64,000 nt of DNA, from NCBI GenBank assembly GCA_030696155.1, contig JAUYSY010000088.1, positions 7,014 through 71,013 on the forward strand, read 5' to 3'. Below, in pieces: positions 3,420 through 45,590 of this stretch. The stretch comes from Alphaproteobacteria bacterium. Its GTDB lineage: Bacteria > Pseudomonadota > Alphaproteobacteria > JAUXUR01. The notes below the pieces were generated by a model. It had not been told where the DNA came from, did not search any database, and was given only the letters and a program-made list of their open reading frames with translations. The translations under genes and the position numbers were made by a program. The first letter of the stretch is position 1; the number at the start of each line of letters is the position of its first letter.

Positions 3420-4830
3420 ATCTAGAAAATACCTTTTCAGTAAATAATGATCCTATTAAAGCCATATGCAAAATAGGCTGTAGCATGTATCTATGGTTAT
3501 GTAAGAAGATATCTATACCTATAAAAGAGGCAAAAAGAACACCGAGATAAAACATAAAAACTATTAAAATTGAAAAATCTAAAAAAGTATTAATTTTAAA
3601 AATAGTATTAATTTTTCTTTTAATATAAATGATACATGCAGGAATGGTAATAAGATAGAAAAATCCAAAATTTCTATATTCAAAAAACATTTTTCCAAAT
3701 CCATAAAAGAATTTTTCAGAGAAAGAAGACACATCTCTATCTAGTTTTCTAAAATGAGTAAAAGCTTCTTTGTTTTCTTTTGCAATATCCATTGTATAAA
3801 GATCACCGAATATAGATCCTAATACGTCATATATTTTTATAAAATCAAGAATAACAACAGATAAACATACTAAAAAAGAAACACAAATATAAGTTATTGT
3901 TTTTATTAATTTTTTTCTATTTTTTATAAATACTATTGTAAATAAAATAAACAATGTTAGAATCCCAGAGCTGTGGACAAACCATGATAAACCTATTGAT
4001 AAACCCAATAATATGTAATTTGAATAATTATCTCTTTTGATGGTTAAGTAGGCAAATAAAGAGGCTGAAAAAAATGTTAAACACCTTATAGGGTCAATAT
4101 GAAAACCAAAAGACATCAAAAAGAAAAATGGAAAACTTAATACAAGAAATGTTGCAATAAAAGGATTTTTTATATGTTTCTGATAGGTTGATATTTTTAT
4201 TAAGATAAATGAAATAATAATAGGAACCATTATTACAAAAAATTTAGAATTTAAATTTTGAATATCAACATCAAGTAAGACTGCACCAAATGCCAGGTAT
4301 GAAGGAAAACCAAGGGGATGTGTAAGGGGTAGAACAAAACCTTTTATAGCATCTTTAGAAGGATAATCATATATAAAGCTTTTGCCTAAGATCAATCTTG
4401 AAATATGAAAATACTCTATTGAATCGTTTTCGATAACTGGAAAAAAAACACAAGATAAAATTAAAAATAAAAGCAAAACAACAACAAAAAACAAAACAAA
4501 AATATTTTTCAAATTATATTTTAAAGGTAAAGTATAATTATTAACAATAAACAATTTTAATTTTTTTAAATAAAATAAAGAATAAAAAAAGAATGGAAGT
4601 GTCGTTATAGAAAACAATGTATAAAAAGATTGTTCATTAAGAATTCTAGTGAATAACAAAAAAACAAAAGAAACAAAAGGGATTCCAATACCTAAACATG
4701 CACAGAACAAAAATCTTTTTTCTATTTTTGTTGCATCATAAGGAATACATATATTATAAAATGTAAATGGTATAAATATTGTTATAGCTAATATTTTTGA
4801 TATTTGAATTAGTATATCAATAAAATTCAT
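3391..4830 (-). CDS. Polytopic membrane protein, GT-C fold glycosyltransferase-like (ArnT/PMT/Gtr-type); paralog of 18097..19539 and 29002..31029
   Basis: More than 10 predicted TM segments. The first loop carries an acidic ENDSIEY motif followed by a conserved HPLGFPSYLAFG block. The same arrangement recurs in two paralogs (GNDPLQY...HPLGYPGLLAWG and ENDALEY...HPLGYPSLLVFQ). Confidence 0.55.
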   Translation of the reverse strand: MNFIDILIQISKILAITIFIPFTFYNICIPYDATKIEKRFLFCACLGIGIPFVSFVFLLFTRILNEQSFYTLFSITTLPFFFYSLFYLKKLKLFIVNNYTLPLKYNLKNIFVLFFVVVLLLFLILSCVFFPVIENDSIEYFHISRLILGKSFIYDYPSKDAIKGFVLPLTHPLGFPSYLAFGAVLLDVDIQNLNSKFFVIMVPIIISFILIKISTYQKHIKNPFIATFLVLSFPFFFLMSFGFHIDPIRCLTFFSASLFAYLTIKRDNYSNYILLGLSIGLSWFVHSSGILTLFILFTIVFIKNRKKLIKTITYICVSFLVCLSVVILDFIKIYDVLGSIFGDLYTMDIAKENKEAFTHFRKLDRDVSSFSEKFFYGFGKMFFEYRNFGFFYLITIPACIIYIKRKINTIFKINTFLDFSILIVFMFYLGVLFASFIGIDIFLHNHRYMLQPILHMALIGSLFTEKVFSRYGIIRFRKT

Positions 4831-5001
4831 TTTGACCCTGCAAAAAAACCATCCTTATTGTTTTACATGATTAATATCAATGTTTCAAGGTTAAAATAAA
4901 TTTCATAATTTTCTGGTTTTTCGATTTGGTAAAAACTGAATGTTAAAAACAAGTGAAACTCCATGGGGCAACCCCCGTGGTGTTTCGTTAGAACAATAAA
5001 T

Positions 5002-11579: not shown

Positions 11580-12413
11580 CTAAATAGAACCATCAAGTGA
11601 TTCATCAATTTCGTCGATTAATTTATTTAAATTATCCTTAATCACAATTTTCTGTTGCAATGTAAGCTTTGAAAGAGATTTTTTTTGAATTTTCAATTCA
11701 TTTTCATTAAAAGCAAGCCTAAGAACTGAAAACGTTTTTTTTATCTTTTTAAAAGAAGCGTTCCCACTCATCCCTTTTATAAAATCAGCTTGCTCATCTT
11801 GTGAAGAAATATTGAAAAGTTTTCTTAGATTTTCGCGGCCGCGAAAATCTGTTTCCAAAATTAAATTCTGCACATCTGGATGAAGTGTGTTTAATTTAAT
11901 CAATTCTGAAATTTGAGAATTAGAAAGACCAACTTTAGACTTAAGTTCTGTCTGCCCTCCCCACCCAACTCTATCTATTAACGATTTTAAAGCACGCGCA
12001 ATTTCCATTGGATGCAAATCCTGACGTTGGACATTCTCAATAAGAGCAATTTCTTCCGCTTTGGCAAGATCCTCAACAATTATACATGGAATTTTTAACA
12101 ACCCAACAAGTTTTGCTGCTCTTAATCTACGCTCACCACTAATTACCTCAAAAACCAATTCATCACTTGAGCTTCTTAGTACAGTTAATGGTTGCCTAAT
12201 ACCATGCTCTTTTATAGTAACGGCAAGTTGTTCGATCTCCTCTTCGGAAAACAATTTTCTTGTTTGTTTATTATATGGCTTTAATTGATCAATAGAAAGA
12301 TACGCAACTTCATATCGTTTATCATCACTAAAAACACTTACTCTTTTTGAAACCGATGTATTTGAATTAAATTCATTGGATGTTATTCTAATTTTTGCAT
12401 TATCTATTTTCAT
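11580..12413 (-). CDS. parB: ParB/Spo0J-family partition protein
   Basis: ParB box ISGERRLRAAKLVG. Position immediately downstream of a ParA gene. Confidence 0.8.
   Translation of the reverse strand: MKIDNAKIRITSNEFNSNTSVSKRVSVFSDDKRYEVAYLSIDQLKPYNKQTRKLFSEEEIEQLAVTIKEHGIRQPLTVLRSSSDELVFEVISGERRLRAAKLVGLLKIPCIIVEDLAKAEEIALIENVQRQDLHPMEIARALKSLIDRVGWGGQTELKSKVGLSNSQISELIKLNTLHPDVQNLILETDFRGRENLRKLFNISSQDEQADFIKGMSGNASFKKIKKTFSVLRLAFNENELKIQKKSLSKLTLQQKIVIKDNLNKLIDEIDESLDGSI
11829..11848. promoter_or_regulatory. Candidate parS centromere site: 20-bp perfect GC-cored palindrome ATTTTCGCGGCCGCGAAAAT (inside parB)
   Basis: Perfect palindrome read directly. GC-rich core in an AT-rich background. 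A near-identical copy lies in the parA-parB intergenic region. Confidence 0.45.
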
Positions 12414-12428
12414 ATAAAACCCTAAAAC

Positions 12429-12444
12429 TTTCGCGGCCGCGAAA
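12429..12444. promoter_or_regulatory. Candidate parS site: 16-bp perfect palindrome TTTCGCGGCCGCGAAA between parA stop and parB start
   Basis: Perfect palindrome read directly. 18 of 20 positions match the 11829..11848 copy. Confidence 0.45.
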
Positions 12445-12445
12445 A

Positions 12446-13426
12446 TTAAGCAGCCACTTTAACATTACTATTTTTAGAACTTTGCTGTACAAGCTCATGA
12501 ACTAAATCCATTACATCTTCAAAAGCAGCAGACCTTGATTTGCAGAAAGCAGAAATTGGAAGTCTCATTTTTGCAGCAATGTTTATATCTTCTGATTTTC
12601 TCACGACAGATCCCATAACATGGTTTCCATAATTCACCCTAAGAGCACCCAACACCTCTTGAGCGATGGCCGTCTTAATCTCATACTTATTAGGTATAAT
12701 ACAATAATTGGGATTTAACCCCATGTCATGATAAAAATTATTCATCTCATTAATAAAAACACCCAAACCATTAAGACTGAACGGCTGTGTTTCACATACA
12801 ATATTAAGCCTATCACAAGCAACAAGAGCATTAAGATTAAGCGTACTAATTGTAGGGTTACAATCCATAATGATAAAATCATAATCTTCACACAGTGGAT
12901 CTAAAATGAGTTTTAGCTTTTCTTCTCTCTTATTTTTAGAACTTAACGGAACCTCGATCCTTGTCACCGATATATTTGAAGGAATAAGATCTAATCCAGG
13001 CATAACTTTTACAATAGCATCATCAACAGAAACACCATTTATCATAATATCATATATTGTTGGACCACTCCAATCTTCTGGAACATTCATTACATTTGAT
13101 AAATGTCCCTGAGGATCTAAATCAATGCATAAAACTTTAAAACCCAAAAGAGATAAATGCGTAGCAACCTGATAACACATACTTGTTTTACCAGTACCAC
13201 CTTTAAAATTATAAAAAACATGTATTTTTTGAAAGATTGGTCTTTTGTGACTGGCATAAACCAAATCTGTAATTTCACGCGTAACTGAAAATGGATAACG
13301 CTTTGTATAATTATTATCATTATGAATTGGCTGAATATTTTGAGACACAATTAACCTTGACACAATAAGTGGTGTCGCTTGGCAAAGCTGTGCAATCATA
13401 GCTTGATTATAGGTGATGTTTTCCAT
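12446..13426 (-). CDS. parA: ParA/MinD-family partition ATPase (with N-terminal extension)
   Basis: Deviant Walker A FKGGTGKTS, followed by CIDLDPQG. 326 aa with ~70-aa N-terminal extension typical of type Ia ParA. Confidence 0.9.
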   Translation of the reverse strand: MENITYNQAMIAQLCQATPLIVSRLIVSQNIQPIHNDNNYTKRYPFSVTREITDLVYASHKRPIFQKIHVFYNFKGGTGKTSMCYQVATHLSLLGFKVLCIDLDPQGHLSNVMNVPEDWSGPTIYDIMINGVSVDDAIVKVMPGLDLIPSNISVTRIEVPLSSKNKREEKLKLILDPLCEDYDFIIMDCNPTISTLNLNALVACDRLNIVCETQPFSLNGLGVFINEMNNFYHDMGLNPNYCIIPNKYEIKTAIAQEVLGALRVNYGNHVMGSVVRKSEDINIAAKMRLPISAFCKSRSAAFEDVMDLVHELVQQSSKNSNVKVAA

Positions 13427-13678
13427 TTTTATCTCTTAATCTAGTCTTATTGGATAATTACATAAATTTTTACAAGATACAAGTTATATTCAATTAAATC
13501 AAAAAACGTATCATGCTTCTTTTTTAGCTTTTAAGCATAATCCAAAAAATAATAACATTTTCTTTGATTGTTAAAAATTCCCCCTTGACAAGAAGAGTTG
13601 ATTTGTTGGTTAATAGGATATGAATTTTGGGAAAGTTTAAAAAAACATTTTCGTAAAATTTAAATTTTAAACACAAAC

Positions 13679-13711
13679 AAAAAAAACCTTCTGCTATAAC
13701 AGAAGGTTTTT
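13679..13711. other. Perfect stem-loop flanked by an A-run and a T-run (AAAAAAAACCTTCTG-ctataa-CAGAAGGTTTTT) in the parA/rep divergent intergenic region
   Basis: 7-bp perfect stem and 6-nt loop with A8 upstream and T5 downstream. Bidirectional terminator-like, but not at the 3' end of either flanking gene. Confidence 0.4.
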
Positions 13712-13839
13712 CTTACACATGAGCTTCAACACGCTCAAGATCACACAAAGTATCTTGAGTCTATAACAAACAATACGTAATGTCAAACAAATGTTGTTGC
13801 TTGTATGTGTATTAACTTATAAAGAGTTGGATCACACAC

Positions 13840-14943
13840 ATGATAAAATCTAAAGTTTTATTACAAGAAGATAAGTGTCTTGTTATGCAGCCGGAACTTA
13901 TTAAAATTGCGGGCAAATCAGCAGCATTATTATTACAACAAATTCATTATTGGATTAGTAATGAAAATGTTCAGGGTAAAATTCATAACAAAATGAAGTG
14001 GATTGCAAATTCCTACGAAGCATGGACTTCTGACATTAAAATAATATCAAGAAGCACTATTGGAAGATCAATAAATACATTAAAAAACTTAGGCATTCTA
14101 TTTGTTGAAAAATTGTCTGATTTTAAAAACAATAGAACAAATTGGTATACAATCAATTATAATCGTATTACTGAAATATTATCTATCCCTAGTATTGATC
14201 ATTCCGTACAAACTTCTTCGCATTTAAACGCTATCCCTGATCAAAATGTTATAGATGAACAATTCAAAATGAGCCCATGTTCAATTCAAAATGAGCCGAT
14301 GTATATAGATAAGAAAACAAACAAAGATATCTTAATAAATCTTAATAAATCAATAAATAATTCTTTTTCTGTAATTAAAAAAGAAAAAATAAAAAAGCCG
14401 TTGACAAAACAAATGATTGATATTTGGAATGAAATAATTAATCCGGATGTAAATTATGAACTTACTAAAAATAGATGTAAGTTTCTTGTTGCAGCTCTTA
14501 AATATAAGTTTAATTATGACATAACACAATGGAAAAATTATTGTTTTAAAATAAGTAGCAGTGATTATTTAATGGGAAAAATTAAAAATGGATTTAAAAT
14601 TTCTTTGGATACTATTTTAAAATTTGATTTTATTCAAAAAATTTTTGAAAAACAATTTGGTGTTAAAGATTTAAAAACTTCTTTTGAAACCGAAGAAAAC
14701 ATTCATCAAAAAATTGATGATACTAAATTACCATACGAAATAAAAGAAATACATCATAAAATTTGTGAAAAAATAGGTACTGCAAAATATATTTCTTGGT
14801 TTAAAGATACGAAAATATTTAAATTATCAAATTCAATAGATATTTTTGTTGATAATAATTTTAAAAAACAATGGATAGGAACAAACTATCAACGTGATCT
14901 TGAGAATTTATTTGGCATAAAAATTAAGATTATTATTAATTAA
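13840..14943 (+). CDS. Putative replication initiator / wHTH DNA-binding protein (divergent from parAB)
   Basis: N-terminal winged-helix-like segment (ISRSTIGRSINTLKNLGILFVEKL), as in DnaD/RepA-type initiators. The position opposite parAB across a 413-bp AT-rich spacer supports the call. The functional assignment is inference. Confidence 0.35.
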   Translation: MIKSKVLLQEDKCLVMQPELIKIAGKSAALLLQQIHYWISNENVQGKIHNKMKWIANSYEAWTSDIKIISRSTIGRSINTLKNLGILFVEKLSDFKNNRTNWYTINYNRITEILSIPSIDHSVQTSSHLNAIPDQNVIDEQFKMSPCSIQNEPMYIDKKTNKDILINLNKSINNSFSVIKKEKIKKPLTKQMIDIWNEIINPDVNYELTKNRCKFLVAALKYKFNYDITQWKNYCFKISSSDYLMGKIKNGFKISLDTILKFDFIQKIFEKQFGVKDLKTSFETEENIHQKIDDTKLPYEIKEIHHKICEKIGTAKYISWFKDTKIFKLSNSIDIFVDNNFKKQWIGTNYQRDLENLFGIKIKIIIN

Positions 14944-33915: not shown

Positions 33916-34107
33916 CAAATTCTATAAGTTATATTTTAGTATCATCAAACGGCCGTTTTTTGATACTAAAATATCGATATTAAAAAACGACTGAATCAAA
34001 GATATATAGAGTGCTTAAAATTATCATTAACTTATATCATAAATCAATATATCATAAACTCATCAATACTAACCATTTATGATATAAAAATAAGGAAGCT
34101 ATTCTTA

Positions 34108-34677
34108 ATGAGCAAATTAATCGGATATGCACGTGTTTCAACATCAGGTCAGGAACTCAATCTTCAGATCGATGCGCTTAAAAAAATTGGATGTGAAAAA
34201 AAGAATATTTTTACGGATGTTGTCTCTGGCTCTAAAACGGATAGGCCTGGATTAAATGAGTGTTTAGAAACTTTACAATCAGGCGACACACTTGTTGTTT
34301 GGCGATTAGACCGTTTAGGGAGGTCAATGTCTCATCTTGTTTCAACTATCGAAAATTTGATTGCCAAAAAAATTGGATTTAAATCTATTTCAGATGGACA
34401 TATAGATACAACGACGGCATCAGGAGAGCTTATATTTAATATATTTTCGTCTCTTGCTCAATTTGAACGACGCCTTATTCAAGAAAGAACAAAATCAGGA
34501 TTAGAGGCAGCACGAGCAAGGGGCAGGGTAGGGGGCAGAAAACCAATAAGCAAATATAACTCAAAAGTATTAGCGGCTCAAAAATTACATCACGATAAAT
34601 CAATGCCAATAGAAAATATTTGCAAGGAGTTGCAGATTTCAAAACCAACTTTATATCGCTATCTTAAATTGAAGTGA
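34108..34677 (+). CDS. Serine recombinase (resolvase/invertase family)
   Basis: GYARVSTSGQ catalytic-Ser motif and C-terminal HTH. 189 aa. Confidence 0.9.
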   Translation: MSKLIGYARVSTSGQELNLQIDALKKIGCEKKNIFTDVVSGSKTDRPGLNECLETLQSGDTLVVWRLDRLGRSMSHLVSTIENLIAKKIGFKSISDGHIDTTTASGELIFNIFSSLAQFERRLIQERTKSGLEAARARGRVGGRKPISKYNSKVLAAQKLHHDKSMPIENICKELQISKPTLYRYLKLK

Positions 34678-34983
34678 AGAATCTTACTTCAAAAAATCTC
34701 CAAAATCGATTATTTTTGTAAAAAAATCACTTTCGGCTACTTCTTCTGACACACCATTTATATGAATAAAAACAGGGCGGCAGGAAAAGTTTTTCAGAAA
34801 AAATTGGATTATTATTCTCCGTAAAATGATAAATGTCAATTTTTGGAGATTTTTTTTAAGCTAATTTTATAGTACAAGCGCAAAACCATGGGGCTTGCCC
34901 CGTGGAGTTTCACTATTATTAAAATATTTTTTGAATATTAGATTTATGATAAGTCAGATCTTCGAAAAAGGGTAGAAGGAATT

Positions 34984-35793
34984 TTATACATTAATAACCT
35001 CTTGAATCTTAGGCTTAGTGTATTCAGCAGCTCCCGCTTTAACGATCAGATTGTTACATGGCTGCCAGTTGGCTTTGCTATGTGTATGACCGCAAAGTGC
35101 TAAAAATTCAATATCAGTATTTGCTTGAGCGATTTGCATCAGCACATCGCCTGTTATTTTTGATGAGAAGAATGGAAGAAAATCATCGTTGCTTATTTTA
35201 CCTTCATGCATACAGGCTTCTTTAAATGGTGGCACATGAATCAAAATAATAACTTTTTTAGGACGATTATTGCTAATGGCATCAGACAATCTCGCTTTCA
35301 AATGCTGGGCATCTTGATCGGCTAATTGCTGCATTTTCTCAAGTAACATGTATTTACCAAAAATGTTGCTTTGAAACAGATCGATGATCATTCGGCTGTC
35401 ATTTAGGGTGACACAACTATTGGTATAATCCCCATATCTGCCATCGGCCCAACAATCTTCACCGAGCAAAATAGTTTGACTCCCTAGATCGTGCACACCA
35501 GACGCTGGAAGCCAATGAAGTAACGGTTCATTTTTGGTTAGATCGCGCATTTCTTGGCGTAATGAATCCACTTGGCCGCGGTAATAATCATGGTTGCCGA
35601 GCACAAAATATATTGGTTTTTGAATTTCTTTGACCATTTCCTTTAGAATTTCTGAAACTGATGGCGCTTCAGCAATATCGCCGCTAATCAAAATCATATC
35701 ACCGGATATCGCTATTACTTTTTTGTAAAACTCCATTCTGCGCTCTGGCCCTAGAAAGTTAAGATGAATGTCTGTTAGCCAAATCAATTTCAT
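34984..35793 (-). CDS. Calcineurin-like metallophosphoesterase
   Basis: LTDIHLN, ISGDIAE and VLGNHDYY motifs. 4-nt overlap with upstream AbiEii-like gene. Confidence 0.8.
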   Translation of the reverse strand: MKLIWLTDIHLNFLGPERRMEFYKKVIAISGDMILISGDIAEAPSVSEILKEMVKEIQKPIYFVLGNHDYYRGQVDSLRQEMRDLTKNEPLLHWLPASGVHDLGSQTILLGEDCWADGRYGDYTNSCVTLNDSRMIIDLFQSNIFGKYMLLEKMQQLADQDAQHLKARLSDAISNNRPKKVIILIHVPPFKEACMHEGKISNDDFLPFFSSKITGDVLMQIAQANTDIEFLALCGHTHSKANWQPCNNLIVKAGAAEYTKPKIQEVINV

Positions 35794-36575
35794 GGGAGCC
35801 TGCTAATAATCTTATCTATAACGAGTTGATAAGCTTCTTCGAAGTTCCAGTGCAATTTGGAAGGCAATAAAATGCTCATATCCATATGGAAATCACGATG
35901 ATTTTTCTTCTGATCGAGATTTTTTATGAATTCTTCCCGTGAGATCTTCACATCGTTATAAATGCAATATTTAGAAAAAATTTCAAAAACTCTATCCAAG
36001 TTAATCAATTCTTGCTTTGTAACGTACCATAAATCAAATAAATCTCGCCCTTTTCGACGTTGGTATAAGGCGCGCAGTTTAGTTGCTATAAGCTCATCAA
36101 TTTCATAGGTGACAATATCCGCAGAGCCATTAAACCATTCAGATTGCACATCTAATTTCTCTAAGCGAAAAGGTAATACCTGAAAATGCTCAGTGGTGTT
36201 TATTTCAATTTTTAGTTTTGCTGGTAGTGTATTAATAGCCTCGTATTTATAAATTAATTTGGCACTGCGTTCGGTAATTTTCCATTTTGGATCACCAAGC
36301 CATGGTTTTAGAAGCGCTCTGATTGCATCAATTGTTTTTCCGATAGGTTCAGATCTTTTTTGTACGAAATCAATGTCTTCACTATATCTTGCTGGTGGCT
36401 TTAGAAATAGTTTATTGAGTGCGGTACCGCCACGAAAAACAAGTGCATCTTTTATGTATGGCTCGTTATACAAATCAACCAGAGCCCGGCTAATAATTAA
36501 ATCTTGTTCTATTTGTTCAAGTGTCTGCCATTTGACAGTTTGACGCCAATGTTCAATGAAAATTTCTGGAATCAT
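35790..36575 (-). CDS. AbiEii/AbiGii-family nucleotidyltransferase toxin (type IV TA)
   Basis: FRGGTALNKLF...RYSEDIDFV signature of the DUF1814/AbiEii family. 4-nt overlap with the upstream antitoxin-like gene. Confidence 0.7.
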   Translation of the reverse strand: MIPEIFIEHWRQTVKWQTLEQIEQDLIISRALVDLYNEPYIKDALVFRGGTALNKLFLKPPARYSEDIDFVQKRSEPIGKTIDAIRALLKPWLGDPKWKITERSAKLIYKYEAINTLPAKLKIEINTTEHFQVLPFRLEKLDVQSEWFNGSADIVTYEIDELIATKLRALYQRRKGRDLFDLWYVTKQELINLDRVFEIFSKYCIYNDVKISREEFIKNLDQKKNHRDFHMDMSILLPSKLHWNFEEAYQLVIDKIISRLP

Positions 36576-37378
36576 AAATCGCTCTCTATTTCTGTATTAT
36601 TAATAATTCTCCACTTTTTACATCTGGGATAGCCGGTTTTAGGTATTTCAGAAGCAAGTGGGAGATATTTTAGTTTGTGCTCTGCGACATACGAAGCAAG
36701 AGCATTAATAATTATTTCAGCATGGTTATCATCTATAATTTCAATATTGTCTAGGATATAACCAATGCGTTGCAATTGATGTTCAGCTTTGATATCCTTC
36801 GCAAGTTTTATAAGCTTGGTAGCATCTAAGTTTTCAACCAGCTCTGATAAAACCGTTGCTATATGGTTTAAGCCACCTGCATGGTTCGGGTAATTCAGTA
36901 AATCAAGCGCTATCAATTCAGGGGTTGCTATTTTAAGGTAACCGGTACTAACAGTAAAATTTTGGATCGGTAAAGCTGATATGGATTTTTTATAAATAAA
37001 CTCTATCTCTATATCACCAAAAGTTAATGAATGTTTAATTCTTTTGTCTGATATAACCTGGAATCTAGCAGGTTTTTGGTGCGTAGCTCCATGGAACAAC
37101 CCTGCGGTTAGCAACGCAACATAATAATTAGCACCTAAATATTGCATCATCAAAGGAACTAATTCTTTTGCTGGTATAGAACCATGCGGTTGATGTTCAG
37201 GTGGAATGATGACATACAAACCTCTGGCAGGTGAAATCACATCCCTAGTTTTAAGTAACCGATGTAAGGAAACCCTCGCATGGTTGTGTGAAACGTGAAA
37301 TTGCGCAACGATATCCTCGATGGTAAAGCAGCGTTTTCCATCTTTTCGGATATCTTTTATGTATGATTGTAAATTCAT
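36572..37378 (-). CDS. AbiEi-family antitoxin / transcriptional regulator
   Basis: 268 aa with N-terminal wHTH-like region. Operon position upstream of the AbiEii-like toxin. GC-richer than flanks. Confidence 0.5.
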   Translation of the reverse strand: MNLQSYIKDIRKDGKRCFTIEDIVAQFHVSHNHARVSLHRLLKTRDVISPARGLYVIIPPEHQPHGSIPAKELVPLMMQYLGANYYVALLTAGLFHGATHQKPARFQVISDKRIKHSLTFGDIEIEFIYKKSISALPIQNFTVSTGYLKIATPELIALDLLNYPNHAGGLNHIATVLSELVENLDATKLIKLAKDIKAEHQLQRIGYILDNIEIIDDNHAEIIINALASYVAEHKLKYLPLASEIPKTGYPRCKKWRIINNTEIESDL

Positions 37379-38684
37379 AGCTTTTCATGTCCTTAAAGTT
37401 ACTAATAACGTAACTATAGAGACACGATAAGCTTGTTTTTTGTGTAAGTCAAGCGCAACGCATTATTATGAGCTCTTCATGTCCATAAAGTTACTGATAG
37501 TGTTATTATTAGGACATACGAAGATGTTAATTTGATTATTTTGCGAAATGTCAAAAGGTTCTATTTATATAAAAGAAAGGCCACCTTTCTAAGGCCTTTC
37601 TTTTAAAAAAGATCTAAATAAGATTACGATATCTTTCTTTGAATCCTTGAAAAACTTCTCTGATAGTTGCAATAATTTTACCTTCATTAAGCTCATTATT
37701 TTCCCAGAGATTGAGATCAATATTCGTTGGCTTCAACATGTCTTGAAGATCAATAAGAAAATTATAATTTACATAATAAAAAAGATCATAAAAAGGGAAA
37801 TCAAACAATGCATCATTCTCTACGTTTTTTGTATATTTAATATAACGATCACAAGGAATTTTCGGACCTTTTGAATTCTCAGCTTTGATAAAATCATAGA
37901 TCGTTAATAAATTTTCAGGATGTATATGCGTTTGGATGTCAGTTTCGTTGTTGTAAATATCTTCAGTTTTTTCGCCCTTATCATTGAGTTATTAATTGTT
38001 TTAAAGAACACCCAGAAATAAGATTGAATACGCAACGAATAGCAAATGAAACTGGACTTCCTTTAAGGACGGTTGCATATGCACTTTCAGGTCTGTTTAA
38101 AAATAATCTTATACAAAAATCTGGACAAGGCTCTGCAACAAAATATCAAATAACTTTTTAATATTTAGGCGAATAAATAGGTTCTATTTTATCTGTATAT
38201 TTTTTATGCCATAAAAGTGATATTTTTTGCTATTTATAGGACATGGAGATTTTATTTAAGCTCCTTATAGAAAGCATTATAAATGATAACGACTATTATA
38301 AAAGGCGTTAAAATTAATCTGTAATAACGTATTGATATGTTGTTTCTATGGGTTTTATATAAAATTTTTTAGATTTGGTTTTTCGTAAATATTGATTTCA
38401 ATGGTTCTGTCGTATTTGTGTGATTTGTGTAAGACAATCGAATTTACCTCTAAGGCATTCTTTTGATATTATTTTTTGTATGTTTTAAACATATTTATCC
38501 CCAGAAAATGGGGATAACATTTTTTTATTTTTTAAGAAGTTGTTATTAATTTTTTTCCTTTATCTCTCCAAATATTTAATTGTTGTTCATGATCTCGCAT
38601 TTCAGAATGAAGTTCATATACAGCTCCTAACAGGATCGATATACAATTGTAAACGCCAATATTTCAAGTGGTGATAAAGAAGAT

Positions 38685-41600
38685 ATGCGTCTTCTTGGCA
38701 ATGATGATGCCGCGTCCACTTTCATTAAGCTCCCTAACATTTTGAAAATATTAGCCAATACCTTTGGCGTCCCAGCCATTAACGCCCAAATAAAGCAAAT
38801 CGCTGATCAAATCGTCAAAGGCGTGTTCCTAGAAACAAACTGGGCGGGCTTGCCTTATACGGGTAAATTACGCGCGGATATTCTGTCTATCCTTAAAATG
38901 TTCGGGTTTGCAGAAGAATTCGACGACCAATTGGTGTTGGGCGATGCAGTTGTGATTGCCCGTGTGCTTGAAGATGCAGCACTTCGACTTGTGGGCAAAC
39001 CCTATTTCCATGATGCGAGTCGTGGGCAAATGCCCGAACAGCAAGTCAAGGATTTGCTGGTTAATATGGTGGCGTTTTCCCGCCAATATTGGGCGCAATT
39101 GGATTTCAAAAAGCCGTTCCCTGAACATATGCGCCATCTTGTTACCGAACCAATGTTATGGCTGGTGCAAGAAGATCTGACGGTTGGTGCTATTAGCTTA
39201 AAACTGCTCATGCCCTATATCGTTTTTCCAAATGCGTATTTGGCGGAAATTGATGATCAATTGAATGGAATTGCTACTTATAACAGTATTGATGTGACGG
39301 TTTCGGATCTTGCTTATATTGAAGCGCCTCTCATTGTAAAAGAAAGCTCGAGTTTCGATTGTAAAGACTTTATAACCCGTATGCGTCGTGATTACGGCAG
39401 CAAGACTTTATACAATTCAAGCGTTAAAAATGGTGTAACAACTATTCATGATGCTTACACAGTGCCCACCATTACGTTCCATGATCATGAGAAATTCCAT
39501 TTTGGGAAAAAATTAAACGTCAAAGCCAGCAATAATATTGTTAATGATGCGGGTCGCATCTTCGCAGATGTCATGCATTTCCAAGCAAAAGGCGATATGT
39601 ATAATAGCGGCCAAATGTGTTTTGTGGATTCTTTAAAAGCGAATATTAACGGGTCTTTCAGCAATGACATTATTGTTGTGACTGAATATGACGAAGTCAA
39701 CGGCGTTAAAGGAACCAGAACCTATACGGGACACGCGGCACGCAATGCAATCAAAGCAAATTCAGGACAAATACTTGCGATCGGCGACGGCAAAGGTCTG
39801 TTCGATGTTAAAACAGGTAAAGACTTCAACCATCGCGGTATTATTGACGTTAATGACGTTAAAATAGTAGCAAATGGAAATCTTAAGATTGAAAATCTAC
39901 CTGACCAATTTGTTGTTCGCTGGGATCCTGGGGCTGGATCTAAAAAAGGCATGGATTGTTTCTCGATCGCCTCCCAATTTACACCGTCGGAAATCCGAGC
40001 ACGCGATGGCTCTGTAAAGCTTGTCGTGGGCGGAGATGCTACGGTGTATGCGTCTTTATTAGCTGCTGCTGACGATATTATTGTTGAGGCAAAGGGTTTC
40101 ATAAAGGCGGAAGCCAAGGGCGAGTCTTATCTAGGTAATGTCAGCATTGAAAACGGCAGACGAAATCGCACTATCAAACAAGAATCGGACATCATCATCC
40201 AGAAAGTGCAAGTTGTTGCAAATGGCAATGTCCGCATGATTGCGCATAAAAATGTTAATATTAAAGGTGGTGATATTGTGGCCGGCCTTGAAGTTGAAAT
40301 TGTTGGCGAAAACATCAATCTAACGCCGATTCAACTCATTGCAGAAAATAAAGTCAAAGAATATGGTTCACGTGGTTTTTCTTATTACAAAAACAATATG
40401 ACTTATTCGACTTCCAATGTTGCCACAACCGATATTCACGCGAATAGTATTAAGCTTTCCGCTAAACATGATGTGAATATTAAGGCATCGATGCTGATGG
40501 CGATGGAAGACATTACGATTAATGCCGGCAATAATATTACAATTGTTGAGGAACTCGTCGAACATTATGTGCACAGCAAAAGCTTTTCAGCACATTTGAA
40601 TTTCTTTGGCAAAAGGGCGATGGATCGCGTTTTAAAGAAAGACATGCGTGGGGCGACACGTGCTTTCGCGCAGGAATTTGGGATTTTAAACCAAATGAAT
40701 CGCTTGATCAAAGCGAAACATGGGCCCGATGTGGCAATTGAAAGCGTGAAATCCATCCTTGATTTATATAAAGAATATCAAGCCATTGATAAAATGGGTT
40801 TTGTTAATTATTGCAAGAAAGCGGCTGTTGAAAAGCTTTTAAGTTCAAGTGCTTCTCTTGAATTTAGTCAAGAAAAACAACAATGGTTTGAAGCGATTTT
40901 GCCCGTGATGCGCGCGAAAAATATTCTGATGAAAGCGGGGAATAATATCAATTTGCGTGGCCTTCAAGCTAAAGCTGAGACGATGAGTCTAGAGGCTAAA
41001 GGCAATATTGATATTCGTGCCGCACAAGAATATTATAATTACCATAAAAAAATACGCACATTAGAAGTGCATACAAGTGCGAATTTTGATCCGGTCAATA
41101 ACGAGTTCTTACTGCCTAATGTTGGTTTTTCGGCTGGCTATCAAAGTTGCTCAAATCATGGCGTGAGACATAAAAATTCACATATTGTTGTGGATAGATT
41201 CGAAGCCCGAACACCCAATACATTGACGTTGGAAGGCGCTACAATCAAAGCAACAGATGTCAAAATCATTGCCAATGCGTTGTTGATGAAATCCTTGGTG
41301 GATACTGAATCTGGGCGCAATAAAGCAATTTCTGGCGGGTTGGATCTGAATTTGGCAAATGGTCAGTTAAGCGGCCATGTTGAGGGCAGCAAAGGGTCTT
41401 ACAGCAAAGCTAAAGTCAACGAACAAACAGGCATCACGGCTTTGGGCGAGTTCATCGCAGAAATCGGCGATTTAACGCATTTGCAAGGGGCATATATTGA
41501 TGCTGTGAACAGTACATTAAAGACGGCGCGTTTTCTTCATAATAATGTTGAAGAATATGACCGATCGAAGCAAACGAGTTTCGATACAGGCAGCTTCAAT

Positions 41601-42911
41601 ATTAAGAAATTCGATATGCCTGGTTCAAAGAAGGATGCGCCAGCAAAACAAGATCAAAATAATGCACCGAAAACGGATTTCGGCATTACGGATGTAGGCT
41701 TCTCGAGGAACTCGTTATTTGCTTTAGTGGATGCTTCCTATCAAAGCAAAAACCAAAAAGGCGTGCTCAAAGCTGGTGCTTCGTCTGGTGTGCAAATCGT
41801 CACGCAATCGGATATTGGCAATTTAAATCGTGATTTAAGCCAAGCGCGCGAATTGGTCAAAGATCACAAGCATTATGTGCGGGTTTTAGTACCTGTTGGT
41901 GATCCAAGTGAATTTATTGAAACCCTCAAAGAGATGTTCAGTGATGTTCAAGGATTGTTTCAATCGGCTGAAACGAAAAGAGAACGCCAGGAAATCAAAG
42001 CGTATAAACAGATTTTTGACGCTATCGAAGAACGCGATGATTTAACGCAAACTGAAAAAGTACAAGCGTTTCAAGCAGCAAGTAATGTGTTGAATCAAAT
42101 GAAGGAAATTCAGCGCGAAACAGCTTCATTAGAAAAAGATATTTCTAAAATTGAAGATAATTTCTTTTCAAAGACAAAAGAAACGACGCCCCATGTTCCT
42201 GTTGAAATAAAAGTTGAAAATCAACCTGGTTGCAACGGTGAGGATGGATGTTATGAAGTACACATTACACGAGGTCATTATGATTATACGAAAGGCACCT
42301 TACATTCAGTTGCCAAGAAAATACGTTATCTTCAAAATGCGTATGAAGATTTTAAAGAAAGCCAACCCAAATGGTTGCGTAATACTTTAAATGCGGCCAT
42401 GGGTGTCGCAGGCTTTTGTGCAGGTGGACCCCTTAAGAAGATTGGTCAAAAACTTGCCACGATTGCGGTTGCTGAAGGTCTTCATATTGGTGCAGATGAT
42501 TTATTAGATCATATCGAGCATAGTGATAGTGATCGAATAGCAGATATGGAAAGCTTCCTGCGTATTACTAGAAAAGATACGCTTACTTTTACTGGATTGT
42601 TCTTAGGTGTCGCGATTTACAAAGCAACACCTGGCGGCACGTCAAAAGCGGCACTCAAGGCAAAAGAACGTAAGTTTGCACGTGAACAACATGGTGATAC
42701 GCATATTGATGGAGGAAAAGCACATAAAATAAATCCCGCACTTCTTACGGGTATTGCGAAAATCCGGTATGATTGGGAAAACTTCGTACGTCAAAAATTG
42801 GTGGAAGGATTTAAGTTTGAACGGCATCATATTGTGCCAAAAGAATATGCAAAGCACGATGCTTTTAAATTAGCCGGTACGCATGTTGATGATAAAATGA
42901 ATCTTGTGTAG
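38685..42911 (+). pseudogene. FhaB/CdiA-like polymorphic toxin fragment (no N-terminal secretion/TPS domain) with C-terminal AHH/HNH-type nuclease domain interrupted by in-frame TAG at 42909..42911; reading frame continues to 43172
   Basis: Haemagglutinin-type beta-helix repeats (VVANGNVRMIAHKNVNIKGGDIV, IHANSIKLSAKHDVNIKASM, ITINAGNNITIV). C-terminus ERHHIVPKE...NLV-TAG-LPRKG...THRGKHYQPY matches the AHH nuclease pattern. A stop codon lies 18 codons upstream of the first Met. GC noticeably higher than surrounding DNA. Confidence 0.55.
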
Positions 42912-43122
42912 CTTCCCAGAAAAGGAACAGAAGCTGAATTAAAAACAGGTGCGACAACGCATCGTGGAAAGCATTATCAACCATATAAGAAGGAAGTTAA
43001 TGAAGCTTTGGATAAAATAAGGGATGAAGGTCTTGCTAAGGGATGGACACAGTCCCAATTTAAAGAAAAGCTTCATCATTTTATGGATGATTTTGGTGAG
43101 CAATTATTAAAAGGTAATAAAC

Positions 43123-44025
43123 ATGTCAATACATCAGGAGAAAGGTTTCATCATGAAATCCATCCAAAATAATAAACCATATAAATGGGGTGTATTAGAA
43201 AAATATCCTGAAAAATATTTTGCAAATTATGATTCTGATAAAAGTCCTGATGCGTTTTATTTAAGACGATGTTTTAAATGGCCTGATGATTTACCTGAAA
43301 AATTGAATAATATTTGGAAAAAAAAAGTAAACCCTCCTTATGTATATTATTATGATGTAAAAGGGGATAAAGAACGACTTTTAATTTATGATTATATATC
43401 AAATATTACAAGTGTGCCTATTGTTAATAAAAGGACAAGGATTTTATTAGAAGAGTTTTGTCCTAATGATGTGCAATTTATAGACACTGAAATTCAAACA
43501 AAAAATGGCATTATTAAAGATGAATATTATGTGATTAATATTTTGAATAAAGTAGATGCCATTGATATGGAGAAAAGCGATTATTCTTATGAAGAAGATG
43601 GTGCTATAAATTTTAAAAAAGTATATTTTAAAGAAAATTCTATGAAAGGCCATTGGATTGCGCGTGATCAACAAGAATTTGGTATTATTTTAGTTTCAGA
43701 CGCATTAAAAAAATTATTTAGAAAACATAAAATTAAAGGCCCTGCTTTTTGGACAGATGTTGAGGCTTATCGTTATACGCCTACCTATGAATCAATTCCA
43801 AGATTTTTTGAAAATAATTTTAAAATTGCGCTTTCATATTTTCAAAGTGATTTAGAAGTTGATAGTAGTTTTCAGATATTAGTGCGTCGGTTGGATCGGA
43901 TACCACTTCATATGTTGGATGTTTTAATTGAAAAAGTTTCTGATTTATCTGATGAAGGCAAGAAGCGTTTGGAAAAAATAAAGGTTTTGGTTGAAGAATT
44001 ACGTCAAAAGCAAATGGGTGGCTAA
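43123..44025 (+). CDS. Putative immunity protein for the upstream nuclease toxin domain
   Basis: Intact 300-aa AT-rich ORF starting within or overlapping the end of the toxin reading frame, the classic toxin-immunity arrangement. No recognisable motif. Inference from context. Confidence 0.4.
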   Translation: MSIHQEKGFIMKSIQNNKPYKWGVLEKYPEKYFANYDSDKSPDAFYLRRCFKWPDDLPEKLNNIWKKKVNPPYVYYYDVKGDKERLLIYDYISNITSVPIVNKRTRILLEEFCPNDVQFIDTEIQTKNGIIKDEYYVINILNKVDAIDMEKSDYSYEEDGAINFKKVYFKENSMKGHWIARDQQEFGIILVSDALKKLFRKHKIKGPAFWTDVEAYRYTPTYESIPRFFENNFKIALSYFQSDLEVDSSFQILVRRLDRIPLHMLDVLIEKVSDLSDEGKKRLEKIKVLVEELRQKQMGG

Positions 44026-44312
44026 GATTTTACGAGGTTAGAGGGCATTGCGTCACAGTAAAACTGTGCCAAGAAATTCATGCGAATGTGAAAATCAATA
44101 ATAAAAGCATCGTTGAATTTTTTTGTTTTTTTTGCGGGGCCTTTCTTTTTAGGCCCACTCAATGTCCTCTTTCAAGGCCCTCCTTCTTCTTTTTTTGTCA
44201 TCTGTGGGAAGGGGGGTTCTTTTAATATGAATATAAAAACCGATCTTAGACAAGTGAATTTTAAATCGACATTTATCGGCCTAACAGCCAGCAGATGTTT
44301 GAGTGGGAGAAT

Positions 44313-44427
44313 GGCATTGCGTCGCAGTAAAACTGCGGCAGAAATTCATTTGAATTTCTGGGGCTAAAGCCCACGCAATGCCTTTACCTCCACCCACATC
44401 TTTTTTTTACGGCTAAATTCCGCGAGC
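44313..44427. repeat. Palindromic cloverleaf-like repeat element, copy A: 70-bp core with 10-bp terminal inverted repeats GGCATTGCGT/ACGCAATGCC and three internal hairpins, plus ~45-bp conserved tail
   Basis: Read directly. ~90% identical to 45474..45590. Partial copy at 44046..44090. Confidence 0.7.
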
Positions 44428-44573
44428 TGTTAAAACCAGGAGCGAGGTTCTATTCATTTTGTATAAAATTGTTAAAATTCGATATGTACTCTAGGTTTTA
44501 TTTGCTATAATGATCACAATTTATATCTTCTGATGATGTAATCGGATAAAATTAAATATAATAGGATAAAAAC

Positions 44574-45440
44574 ATGCGCGAACTTATTGATCCAAGGGTT
44601 GATTTGGCCTTTAAAAAAATTTTTGGCGTTGAAGAAAATAAAGATCTTTTAATTTCTTTAATTAATTCTGTTGTATCTCAAGAAGATCAAGTTCAAGATG
44701 TTGTACTTTTAACTCCTTATAATCCGCAAACATTTCGAAGTGAAAAATTATCAATTCTTGATATTAAAGCTGTAGGGCTGGATGACAAACGTTTTAATAT
44801 TGAAATTCAGATTAGTGATGAAGCGGATTATGATAAAAGAGCCCTTTATTACTGGGGTAAATTATATACAGAACAATTAAAAACAGGTCAAGATTATGGT
44901 ATTTTATGTAAAGCGATTGGGATTCATATCCTAAATTTTATGTCGATTCCGGATTCTAAGAAATATCACAATATTTTTACGATTAGAGAAAAAGAACTCG
45001 ATATTGAATATTTTAAAGATTTAGAACTACATACGATAGAACTTTCAAAATTTAATGCCGATGAACGTTTTACACAAGTAAAAACGGCTCTTGACAGGTG
45101 GGTTGCTTTTTTAACGCGTCAATCGTTGATCAATCGTGAAAATGTACCTGATCCGATGAATCAGCCCGATTTAAAAAAAGCCCTAAATGTATTGGATGTC
45201 ATGAATTTAAATGAAGAGGAAAGAAATTCTTATGATGACCATTTAAAATGGTTGCGCATAGAAGCCAATACACTCAAAAAATATAAAAAAGATGGATATG
45301 TTGAAGGTCTTGAAGAAGGTATTAAAAAAGAAAAATTTGACATAGCTAGTGCAATGATTAAGCAAAAGTTTGATGATACTGTTATTATGCACTTAACAGG
45401 TCTTTCTCAAGAAGAAATAGAAAATTTAAAAAGAAGTTAA
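44574..45440 (+). CDS. Rpn/YhgA-family recombination-promoting nuclease / putative transposase (PD-(D/E)XK)
   Basis: N-terminal DPRVDLAFKKIFG motif. C-terminal GLEEGIKKEK...LTGLSQEEIENL tail typical of the family. 288 aa. Confidence 0.75.
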   Translation: MRELIDPRVDLAFKKIFGVEENKDLLISLINSVVSQEDQVQDVVLLTPYNPQTFRSEKLSILDIKAVGLDDKRFNIEIQISDEADYDKRALYYWGKLYTEQLKTGQDYGILCKAIGIHILNFMSIPDSKKYHNIFTIREKELDIEYFKDLELHTIELSKFNADERFTQVKTALDRWVAFLTRQSLINRENVPDPMNQPDLKKALNVLDVMNLNEEERNSYDDHLKWLRIEANTLKKYKKDGYVEGLEEGIKKEKFDIASAMIKQKFDDTVIMHLTGLSQEEIENLKRS

Positions 45441-45473
45441 TTAACTGTTTTTTGTGTATTACTAAAACAGAGA

Positions 45474-45590
45474 GCATTGCGTCGCAGTAAAACTGCGGCA
45501 GAAATTCTTTTGAATTTCTGGGGATAAAGCCCACGCAATGCCTTCTCTTACCCCACATCTTTTTTTTACGGCTAAATTTCCCAAGCGGAT
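45474..45590. repeat. Palindromic cloverleaf-like repeat element, copy B (direct repeat of 44313..44427, flanking the Rpn-family gene)
   Basis: Read directly: AGCATTGCGTCGCAGTAAAACTGCGGCAGAAATTCTTTTGAATTTCTGGGGATAAAGCCCACGCAATGCC followed by the conserved tail ...CACATCTTTTTTTTACGGCTAAATT. Confidence 0.7.

Follow-up and report, generated by a model that had tools for sequence, protein, structure and literature searches.

Two conserved palindromes at the parAB genes of an alphaproteobacterial plasmid and their prediction as its parS centromere

The DNA analyzed here, a stretch of 64 kb referred to as the window, carries two copies of a GC-cored perfect palindrome at its parAB genes, and we consider it very probable, judging from sequence comparison, that both copies are the parS centromere of the plasmid's own ParABS system. 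The sites are non-random, their conservation as DNA exceeds coding need, and they are tied by position and phylogeny to this ParB family. The sequence contains a Walker-type ParA beside parB, a ParB with a GERRxRA motif and a helix-turn-helix domain (HTH), and palindromes in cis that are conserved together with their cognate ParB, as in ParABS systems. Centromere-like sites in general are recognized by incompatibility, binding of protein B and stabilization in cis (PMC9040568). The features of the locus are as follows.

11580..12413, minus strand: parB, 277-aa protein of ParB/Spo0J/Noc type (Pfam ParB_N 1.3e-21, HTH_ParB 1.3e-10)
11827..11850, unstranded: predicted parS copy 2, 24-bp perfect palindrome AGATTTTCGCGGCCGCGAAAATCT within parB
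12429..12444, unstranded: predicted parS copy 1, 16-bp perfect palindrome TTTCGCGGCCGCGAAA in the 32-bp parA-parB spacer
12446..13426, minus strand: parA, 326-aa Walker-type ATPase (Pfam AAA_31 7e-41; AAA_31/CbiA)
13427..13839, unstranded: parA-rep intergenic region with probable promoters and origin, as suggested by GC skew, a repeat, promoter and terminator scan, and conservation
13840..14943, plus strand: rep, 367-aa plasmid replication initiator, divergent from parAB

An exact search of the window finds TTTCGCGGCCGCGAAA at 11831-11846 and at 12429-12444, that is two copies in 64 kb compared to a chance expectation of 0.08, and two or more copies occur in none of 100 dinucleotide shuffles of the window. 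There is no third copy at up to three mismatches in the 64 kb, which represent the larger part of a source contig of ~73.5 kb (73,471 bp). The ParB of the window is identical to one encoded on this contig, which belongs to a metagenome-assembled genome of an "Alphaproteobacteria bacterium". The replicon count of the 16-mer that had been suggested along with the original prediction yields, for these 64 kb, two copies, both at parAB. The GC core CGCGGCCGCG, ten base pairs of G+C, is likewise confined to these two places within the window, and the surroundings of the locus have a GC content of 22-32%, in agreement with the AT-rich background described before. The spacer copy sits, exactly as had been proposed, in the 32 bp between the parA stop codon (12446-12448) and the parB start (12413), and its center lies 23 bp upstream of the parB ATG. 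The copy inside parB had been given as a palindrome of 20 bp (11829..11848); it is real, but its perfect symmetry extends over 24 bp (11827-11850). It encodes D-F-R-G-R-E-N, residues 189-195 of ParB. No other repeated or palindromic centromere candidate was found in the 64-kb window. A permissive detector returned a third palindrome at ~40526, which is TAATGCCGGCAATA in a haemagglutinin gene and an unrelated chance match. The canonical chromosomal parS TGTTNCACGTGAAACA is absent from the window, with four matches at three mismatches compared to 1.9 expected by chance and none of them at the locus, and the departure of the palindromes from this sequence had been recognized correctly.

The assignment of parA and parB in the original prediction holds, given the Pfam domains listed above. 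ParB scores 129 bits against NCBIfam parB_part (TIGR00180), above the cutoff of 58, and it contains GERRLRAA (CTP-binding), ENVQRQDL and an HTH; both motifs align to the structures of Spo0J and Noc, and the best solved relatives are 4UMK (H. pylori Spo0J-parS), 6SDK (B. subtilis Spo0J) and Noc 7NFU. GERRxRA forms the CTP-binding pocket of ParB clamps (PMC10786196). By sequence inspection the canonical LG-R/K-GL motif for interaction with ParA (PMC10786196) is missing from the N-terminus of ParB. The parA gene lies immediately upstream of parB in the same orientation, and its product has an N-terminal extension of ~65 aa and the deviant Walker A motif KGGTGKT. ParA matches the PHROG ParA-like family at 2.6e-49, and its top NCBIfam match, partition_RepA, reaches 84 bits, far under the cutoff of 348. 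The initiator combines a C-terminal Pfam DnaA_N domain (8e-9, aa 304-358) with an N-terminal part matching PHROG DnaD-like and replication-initiation families (1e-22, aa 7-208). The cumulative GC skew of the window has its minimum at about 12-14 kb, in the parA-rep intergenic region. As a separate observation, a candidate small antisense RNA is located on the minus strand at ~13677-13786 (fold -29 kcal/mol, z = -5.5).

Scans of the window for tRNAs and Rfam families gave no tRNA, rRNA or Rfam match. The open reading frames scanned are accessory, coding for polysaccharide and glycosylation functions, a haemagglutinin-repeat toxin with Imm11, AbiEi and YoeB, and they include transposases of the Tn3 and PDDEXK types. 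An apparent second parAB pair at 59404-61162 (open reading frames of 265 and 326 aa) is actually an ion channel and a TerC protein. The layout with parB following parA on one strand and a divergent DnaA-like gene is also found on complete plasmids of Candidatus Megaera and Candidatus Bandiella (Rickettsiales), with 41-48% identity of ParB and ParA. Taken together, the missing RNA genes, the accessory content and the layout shared with Megaera and Bandiella identify the replicon as a predicted DnaA-like/ParAB plasmid of the Rickettsiales/Holosporales type, with an AT-rich, probably intracellular alphaproteobacterium as its host.

Both palindromes recur at the same two positions in contigs whose ParB is 93%, 78%, 59% and about 52% identical to that of the window, and the junction position is occupied in the loci L124-126, L129, L132 and L134-137. 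For footprinting, six parA-parB regions were aligned, whose nucleotide sequences are between 93% and 62% identical to that of the window. While 38.6% of the alignment columns are invariant, the two longest invariant runs are the 14-nt cores TTCGCGGCCGCGAA of both palindromes, and the next longest run has 11 nt. We then consider a larger set, in which a scan of metagenome contigs with a ParB profile contributed 80 further loci, leading to 89 related loci in all and 90 with the window. The sequence NTTCGCGGCCGCGAAN is present in 38 of these 90 loci, always at one of four places: ahead of parA by 15-92 bp, at the parA-parB junction, within parB at nucleotides 574-598, or 9-30 bp 3' of the parB stop codon. 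The core is conserved beside ParB homologues down to ~38% identity. In the lineage L127 (69% ParB identity) both palindromes have been lost. The bare 14-mer, searched across the genome-contig collection, gives chance matches in GC-rich genomes only, none of them in AT-rich DNA or beside a ParB homologue.

In many of the other loci these places are taken by symmetric variants, among them GGTCGCGATCGCGACC, TATGGCGGCCGCCATA, TATTGCGGCCGCAATA, ATCCGCGGCCGCGGAT and TTCGCCATGGCGAA. Counted with a single detector, GC-cored 16-bp palindromes amount to 78 sites in 54 of the 89 related loci, compared to 4.7 +/- 1.8 in shuffles, and 70% of these 78 sites fall into four zones that make up 5.7% of the DNA. 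The variants alter both arms symmetrically, their center is always self-complementary (GGCC, GATC, CGCG or CATG), and they cluster by clade on a neighbor-joining tree of ParB. On a single contig with two parAB modules (L203 and L208) each module has its own type of palindrome. The complete Megaera plasmid CP113871.1 (55,656 bp) contains, with up to three mismatches allowed, a single copy, located 11 bp after the parB stop codon, and the co-resident plasmid CP113872.1 contains none, as would be expected if compatible plasmids need different centromeres. For about 35 loci out of the 89, among them the L127 lineage and the complete, well-covered plasmids of Bandiella and Megaera unnamed5, no GC-cored palindrome is detectable.

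The positions of the sites bear on the question of whether they could act as transcriptional operators alone, by which a KorB-like ParB or the extended ParA would autoregulate parAB, the true centromere being located elsewhere. Both sites of the window lie within the parAB transcription unit, some relatives have the site 15-92 bp upstream of parA, which is an operator-like place, and the N-terminal extension of ParA resembles that of autoregulatory type Ia ParAs and might hint at the same function. However, neither site of the window is located in a promoter, and the commonest position in the surveyed loci, just 3' of parB, would be useless for a promoter operator. An alternative centromere is also hard to place, as the 64 kb offer no other candidate and the complete Megaera plasmid has a single site. 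Regulation and centromere function can moreover coexist in ParB systems; in repABC systems RepB bound to parS also contributes to autorepression. We therefore regard operators without centromere function as unlikely, and an operator role as conceivable in addition to that of a centromere.

The same palindromes could in principle be read at the level of RNA, as hairpins that terminate, attenuate, stabilize or process the parAB mRNA, since any palindrome can fold. The intragenic copy gives a 10-bp stem (-14.1 kcal/mol, z = -2.9), and in many relatives the position 9-30 bp after the parB stop is terminator-like. The minimum-free-energy fold, in contrast, does not include the spacer copy (z = -0.95), both copies are devoid of a T-tract, and a terminator between parA and parB or within parB would abolish parB expression. 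Across ParBs that are 38-100% identical it is the sequence that is conserved and not pairing alone, and the four bases at the center, where a hairpin would have its loop, are self-complementary throughout, which is expected of a duplex recognized through dyad symmetry and not of a hairpin loop. Some copies are even located upstream of parA promoters. This is an argument that a function as RNA hairpins is very unlikely.

The copy within parB allows for a comparison between the constraint on the DNA and the constraint on the protein. It reads TTT CGC GGC CGC GAA AAT, coding for F-R-G-R-E-N, and the R-G-R part is written in the rare codons CGC GGC CGC, for which a probability of about 0.0025 follows from the codon usage of the long open reading frames in the window. 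The peptide x-R-G-R-E is limited to the subclade that bears the site; in distant ParBs its place is taken by I-K-S-R-D or similar residues, with the second Arg alone being conserved. The flanking residues follow the outermost base pair of the palindrome and occur as F...N (TTT...AAT), V...H (GTT...CAT) or I...Y (ATT...TAT). In L127 the peptide is retained as FRGRD, encoded by TTC CGT GGT CGT GAC, and the palindrome is gone; the ParB protein thus needs none of those nucleotides. The restriction of the peptide to the subclade with the site and the covariation of its flanks indicate that the DNA site constrains the protein and not the reverse, and the intragenic palindrome is accordingly predicted to have imposed x-R-G-R-E on ParB.

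That the two copies are a coincidence, arising from a coding constraint on FRGRE together with a chance copy in the spacer, or that they are the target of a NotI-like restriction-modification or homing system, is extremely unlikely: a conserved peptide is indeed encoded in frame by the copy within parB, and the core does contain the NotI site GCGGCCGC, but the peptide is conserved solely where the DNA site is present, the codon choice is improbable as given above, the spacer copy is non-coding yet equally conserved, the part of the window's open reading frames that was scanned includes no methyltransferase or endonuclease, and conservation, along with covariation with ParB, extends into the flanks past the 8-bp NotI core. 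The reading as coding constraint and chance is largely refuted.

A further hint arises from the residues of ParB that could contact the DNA. Using a HMMER alignment to Noc we assigned the four specificity positions defined for ParB and Noc (PMC7383237) to N165, L171, T176 and R193. Within NBS, Noc R186 reads a guanine of the G+C core and Noc Q158 an adenine 7 bp from the dyad (PMC7383237). R193 aligns with Noc R186 and is Arg in almost all members of the ParB family. The position equivalent to Noc Q158, residue 165, is Gln in all six loci with TAT... sites, where an A stands 7 bp away from the dyad, and in none of ~50 other site-bearing loci, a count that comprises two clades and ignores phylogeny. 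The alignment suggests that the site variants co-vary with the HTH specificity residue 165.

Footprinting, the conserved positions, the co-diversification with ParB, the uniqueness of the site in a related replicon and the rare codons all favor the palindromes as candidate parS, as had been proposed originally. As predicted centromeres, each dyad-symmetric site would be recognized by a ParB dimer via its helix-turn-helix domains, in analogy to the family. CTP bound at the GERRLRAA pocket would then shut the N-terminal gate, and ParB would leave parS as a sliding clamp. Repeated loading could spread a partition complex across the parAB-rep region, and this complex might stimulate the ATPase of nucleoid-bound ParA, by which the plasmid copies would be moved and separated. 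As both sites are located within the parAB transcription unit, at a distance of ~1 kb from the parA promoter, the complex would probably also feed back on parAB expression and act as an incompatibility determinant.

A more far-reaching proposal, which we put forward tentatively and with considerable doubt, is that NTTCGCGGCCGCGAAN and its symmetric variants may represent an unrecognized class of centromeres, one that belongs to a large DnaA-like/ParAB plasmid family from intracellular members of the Alphaproteobacteria (Rickettsiales, Holosporales and relatives) and links parS of the repABC type to a chromosomal or Noc-like ParB. In one subclade the site would have been written into parB, where it would dictate x-R-G-R-E, including the Arg aligned with the base-reading Arg of Noc, and force the dyad-symmetric F/N, V/H and I/Y covariation. 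It might also couple the clamp loading of ParB to the transcription of its own gene, as a feedback device.

The palindromes themselves are, by prediction, an ordinary kind of plasmid centromere, and the known picture of how ParABS works is unchanged by these findings. Within the searchable literature, the novel aspects appear to be the sequence class, its breadth over endosymbiont-type plasmids and the predicted shaping of ParB by the intragenic copy; the 14-mer is found there in NotI cloning primers alone. Shuttle vectors for obligate intracellular Alphaproteobacteria are built from dnaA-like and parA modules, and a defined 16-bp candidate centromere could aid the design of such vectors as well as the prediction of incompatibility groups. 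For the binning of plasmid contigs from metagenomes, a list of the symmetric variants together with their ParB clades could be of use. The ParB family also provides a natural data set for the diversification of ParB/parS specificity, for example with the covariation of Gln and adenine that mirrors the Noc code, and the intragenic copy could illustrate clearly how a site on DNA restricts the amino acid sequence of the very protein that binds it.

Among the known systems we first regard repABC plasmids. Their parS consensus is 5'-GTTNNCNGCNGNNAAC-3' (PMC9040568), the palindromes diagnostic of their compatibility groups follow the pattern TTNNCNG|CNGNNAA and are present as two or three copies (PMC11107812), and the known locations are the region before gene A, the interval from A to B, the 5' part of B and the region after B (PMC9040568, PMC11107812). 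The comparison with parS consensus sequences that had been suggested originally was carried out, and it reveals a closeness to this repABC type which had been missed. The sites studied here are 16-bp perfect palindromes as well, with TT/AA at positions 2-3/14-15, C6/G11 and a central GC. Of the 10 positions that the consensus specifies, the window site agrees at 8 and the commonest form in the family, GTTCGCGGCCGCGAAC, at all 10. The locations of the window sites match the known placements, a module has two or three identical copies, the hosts are Alphaproteobacteria in both cases, and the family variants diversify symmetrically in the way of compatibility groups. In contrast to repABC, the outermost pair in the clade of the window is T/A and not G/C. 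The replicon itself is not of the repABC kind. The window has no repC and no rep-like gene downstream of parB; its initiator is DnaA_N/DnaD-like, divergent and upstream of parA. Neither protein comes near the models, with 84.4 bits of ParA against RepA (TIGR03453, cutoff 348.45) and 37.9 bits of ParB against RepB (TIGR03454, cutoff 201.5), and ParB is closer to chromosomal ParB/Noc than to RepB.

The chromosomal ParB/Spo0J-parS system shares the domain architecture of ParB, the GERRxRA motif and a 16-bp palindrome that nucleates the complex. Its parS TGTTNCACGTGAAACA differs from the window site, which has an 8-bp half-site with a G+C core in place of GTTTCAC, and the window differs further by its plasmid context and the longer ParA. 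Lin and Grossman reportedly located a parS inside the B. subtilis spo0J gene in 1998, which would be a precedent for a centromere within the gene of its own binding protein.

Noc is the top NCBIfam match of ParB, and its 134 bits are to be seen against a cutoff of 315 (TIGR04285). The Noc site NBS ATTTCCCGGGAAAT resembles the palindromes in having A/T-rich arms around a G+C core, and within the family Gln at the equivalent of Q158 co-occurs with an A seven base pairs from the dyad, as in the recognition of NBS. Differences to Noc are the pairing of parB with ParA and a plasmid initiator, a site of 16 bp compared to 14 bp, and the lack of any sign of membrane targeting.

In gene organization the locus resembles the DnaA-like and ParA plasmids of Rickettsia and other Rickettsiales, along with the DnaA-like replicons of Rhodobacterales, which likewise combine parA and parB in this order with a divergent DnaA-like rep, on AT-rich plasmids of endosymbionts. 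Partition and incompatibility of the rickettsial plasmids have been called "largely unexplored" (PMC9004397), and the descriptions consulted define no centromere for them (PMC1800911, PMC9004397). In this respect the window differs, as it provides a candidate site that is common to at least one Megaera plasmid.

The two GC-cored palindromes, predicted to form the parS centromere of the parAB locus, are both lost in one lineage of related loci (L127, positions 3940-4840, and L128), where the ParB protein is 69% identical to that of the window. The peptide FRGRD, the counterpart of the FRGRE encoded by the palindrome inside parB, is written there with other codons (TTC CGT GGT CGT GAC), and the only remnant is TGCGGCCGCA, which now codes for the AAA at the C-terminus of ParA. 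No GC-cored palindrome that could replace the lost ones was found within 8.8 kb in this lineage.

A GC-cored site was likewise not found in the Megaera plasmid unnamed5, where one other palindrome was the sole notable one near parAB:

L213 (CP113872.1) around 34165, and L003 2482-2495: palindrome TTTAGCTAGCTAAA, about 620 bp 3' of parB

It is similar to the KorB operator (TTTAGCSGCTAAA) and may represent a diverged centromere. The metagenomic contig Ga0307987_1000494 (23,695 bp), the source of both L203 and L208, carries two adjacent parAB modules of the same family, one with CTTCGCGGCCGCGAAG-type sites and the other with GGTCGCGATCGCGACC sites, an arrangement that suggests a cointegrate combining two different centromere specificities. 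The ParB encoded by plasmid H11 (CP101108.1) of Candidatus Cardinium sp. is 43% identical to that of the window, and its occurrence on the plasmid of a Bacteroidota endosymbiont suggests that the partition module transfers between unrelated intracellular bacteria. The host is an endosymbiont of mites.

Further along the window, the G+C content is raised to 34-41% between 34000 and 45500, compared to 21-31% across most of the upstream 34 kb. This region looks like an acquired toxin/immunity island and contains:

within 34000-45500: metallophosphatase gene
36572-37378: AbiEi antitoxin
38685-42911: haemagglutinin-repeat protein, 1408 aa
43123-44025: Imm11 immunity protein
44574-45440: PDDEXK_2 transposase

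A 747-aa reading frame at 50389-52632, with a 30-bp perfect A/T palindrome just 5' of it (50274-50303), encodes an unusual and long fusion protein, in which the YoeB-toxin-like domain is confined to the far C-terminal end (aa 687-745). The 24-bp perfect palindrome TATATATATACATGTATATATATA (57730-57753) precedes a truncated Tn3-family transposase of 267 aa (57730-58776 including the palindrome), which covers 234 positions of the 389-position DDE domain model.

Upstream of parA, the conserved block ATATAACTTGTATCTTGTAAAAATTTATGTGATTAT (approximately 13465-13500, 40-75 bp 5' of the ATG) is a candidate for the promoter or an operator of parA; its AACTTGT core is unchanged even in a relative of 59% identity. 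The region separating parA from the divergently transcribed rep gene holds a further element:

13677-13786, minus strand: candidate small RNA with promoter, stem-loops and U-tract hairpin

It is headed by a sigma70-like promoter (TTGACA-17-TAGACT, 13786..13758), followed by stem-loops and a hairpin with an 18-bp stem and U-tract (13716..13677). The 90-nt fold reaches -29 kcal/mol (z = -5.5), and no Rfam match was obtained for the element. It is also conserved in the related loci L124 and L126, while L127 and L129 retain the terminal hairpin and T-run with a different stem sequence. No convincing plus-strand promoter for rep was found. By analogy, the candidate RNA could act as a countertranscript controlling rep, like the ctRNA of repABC.
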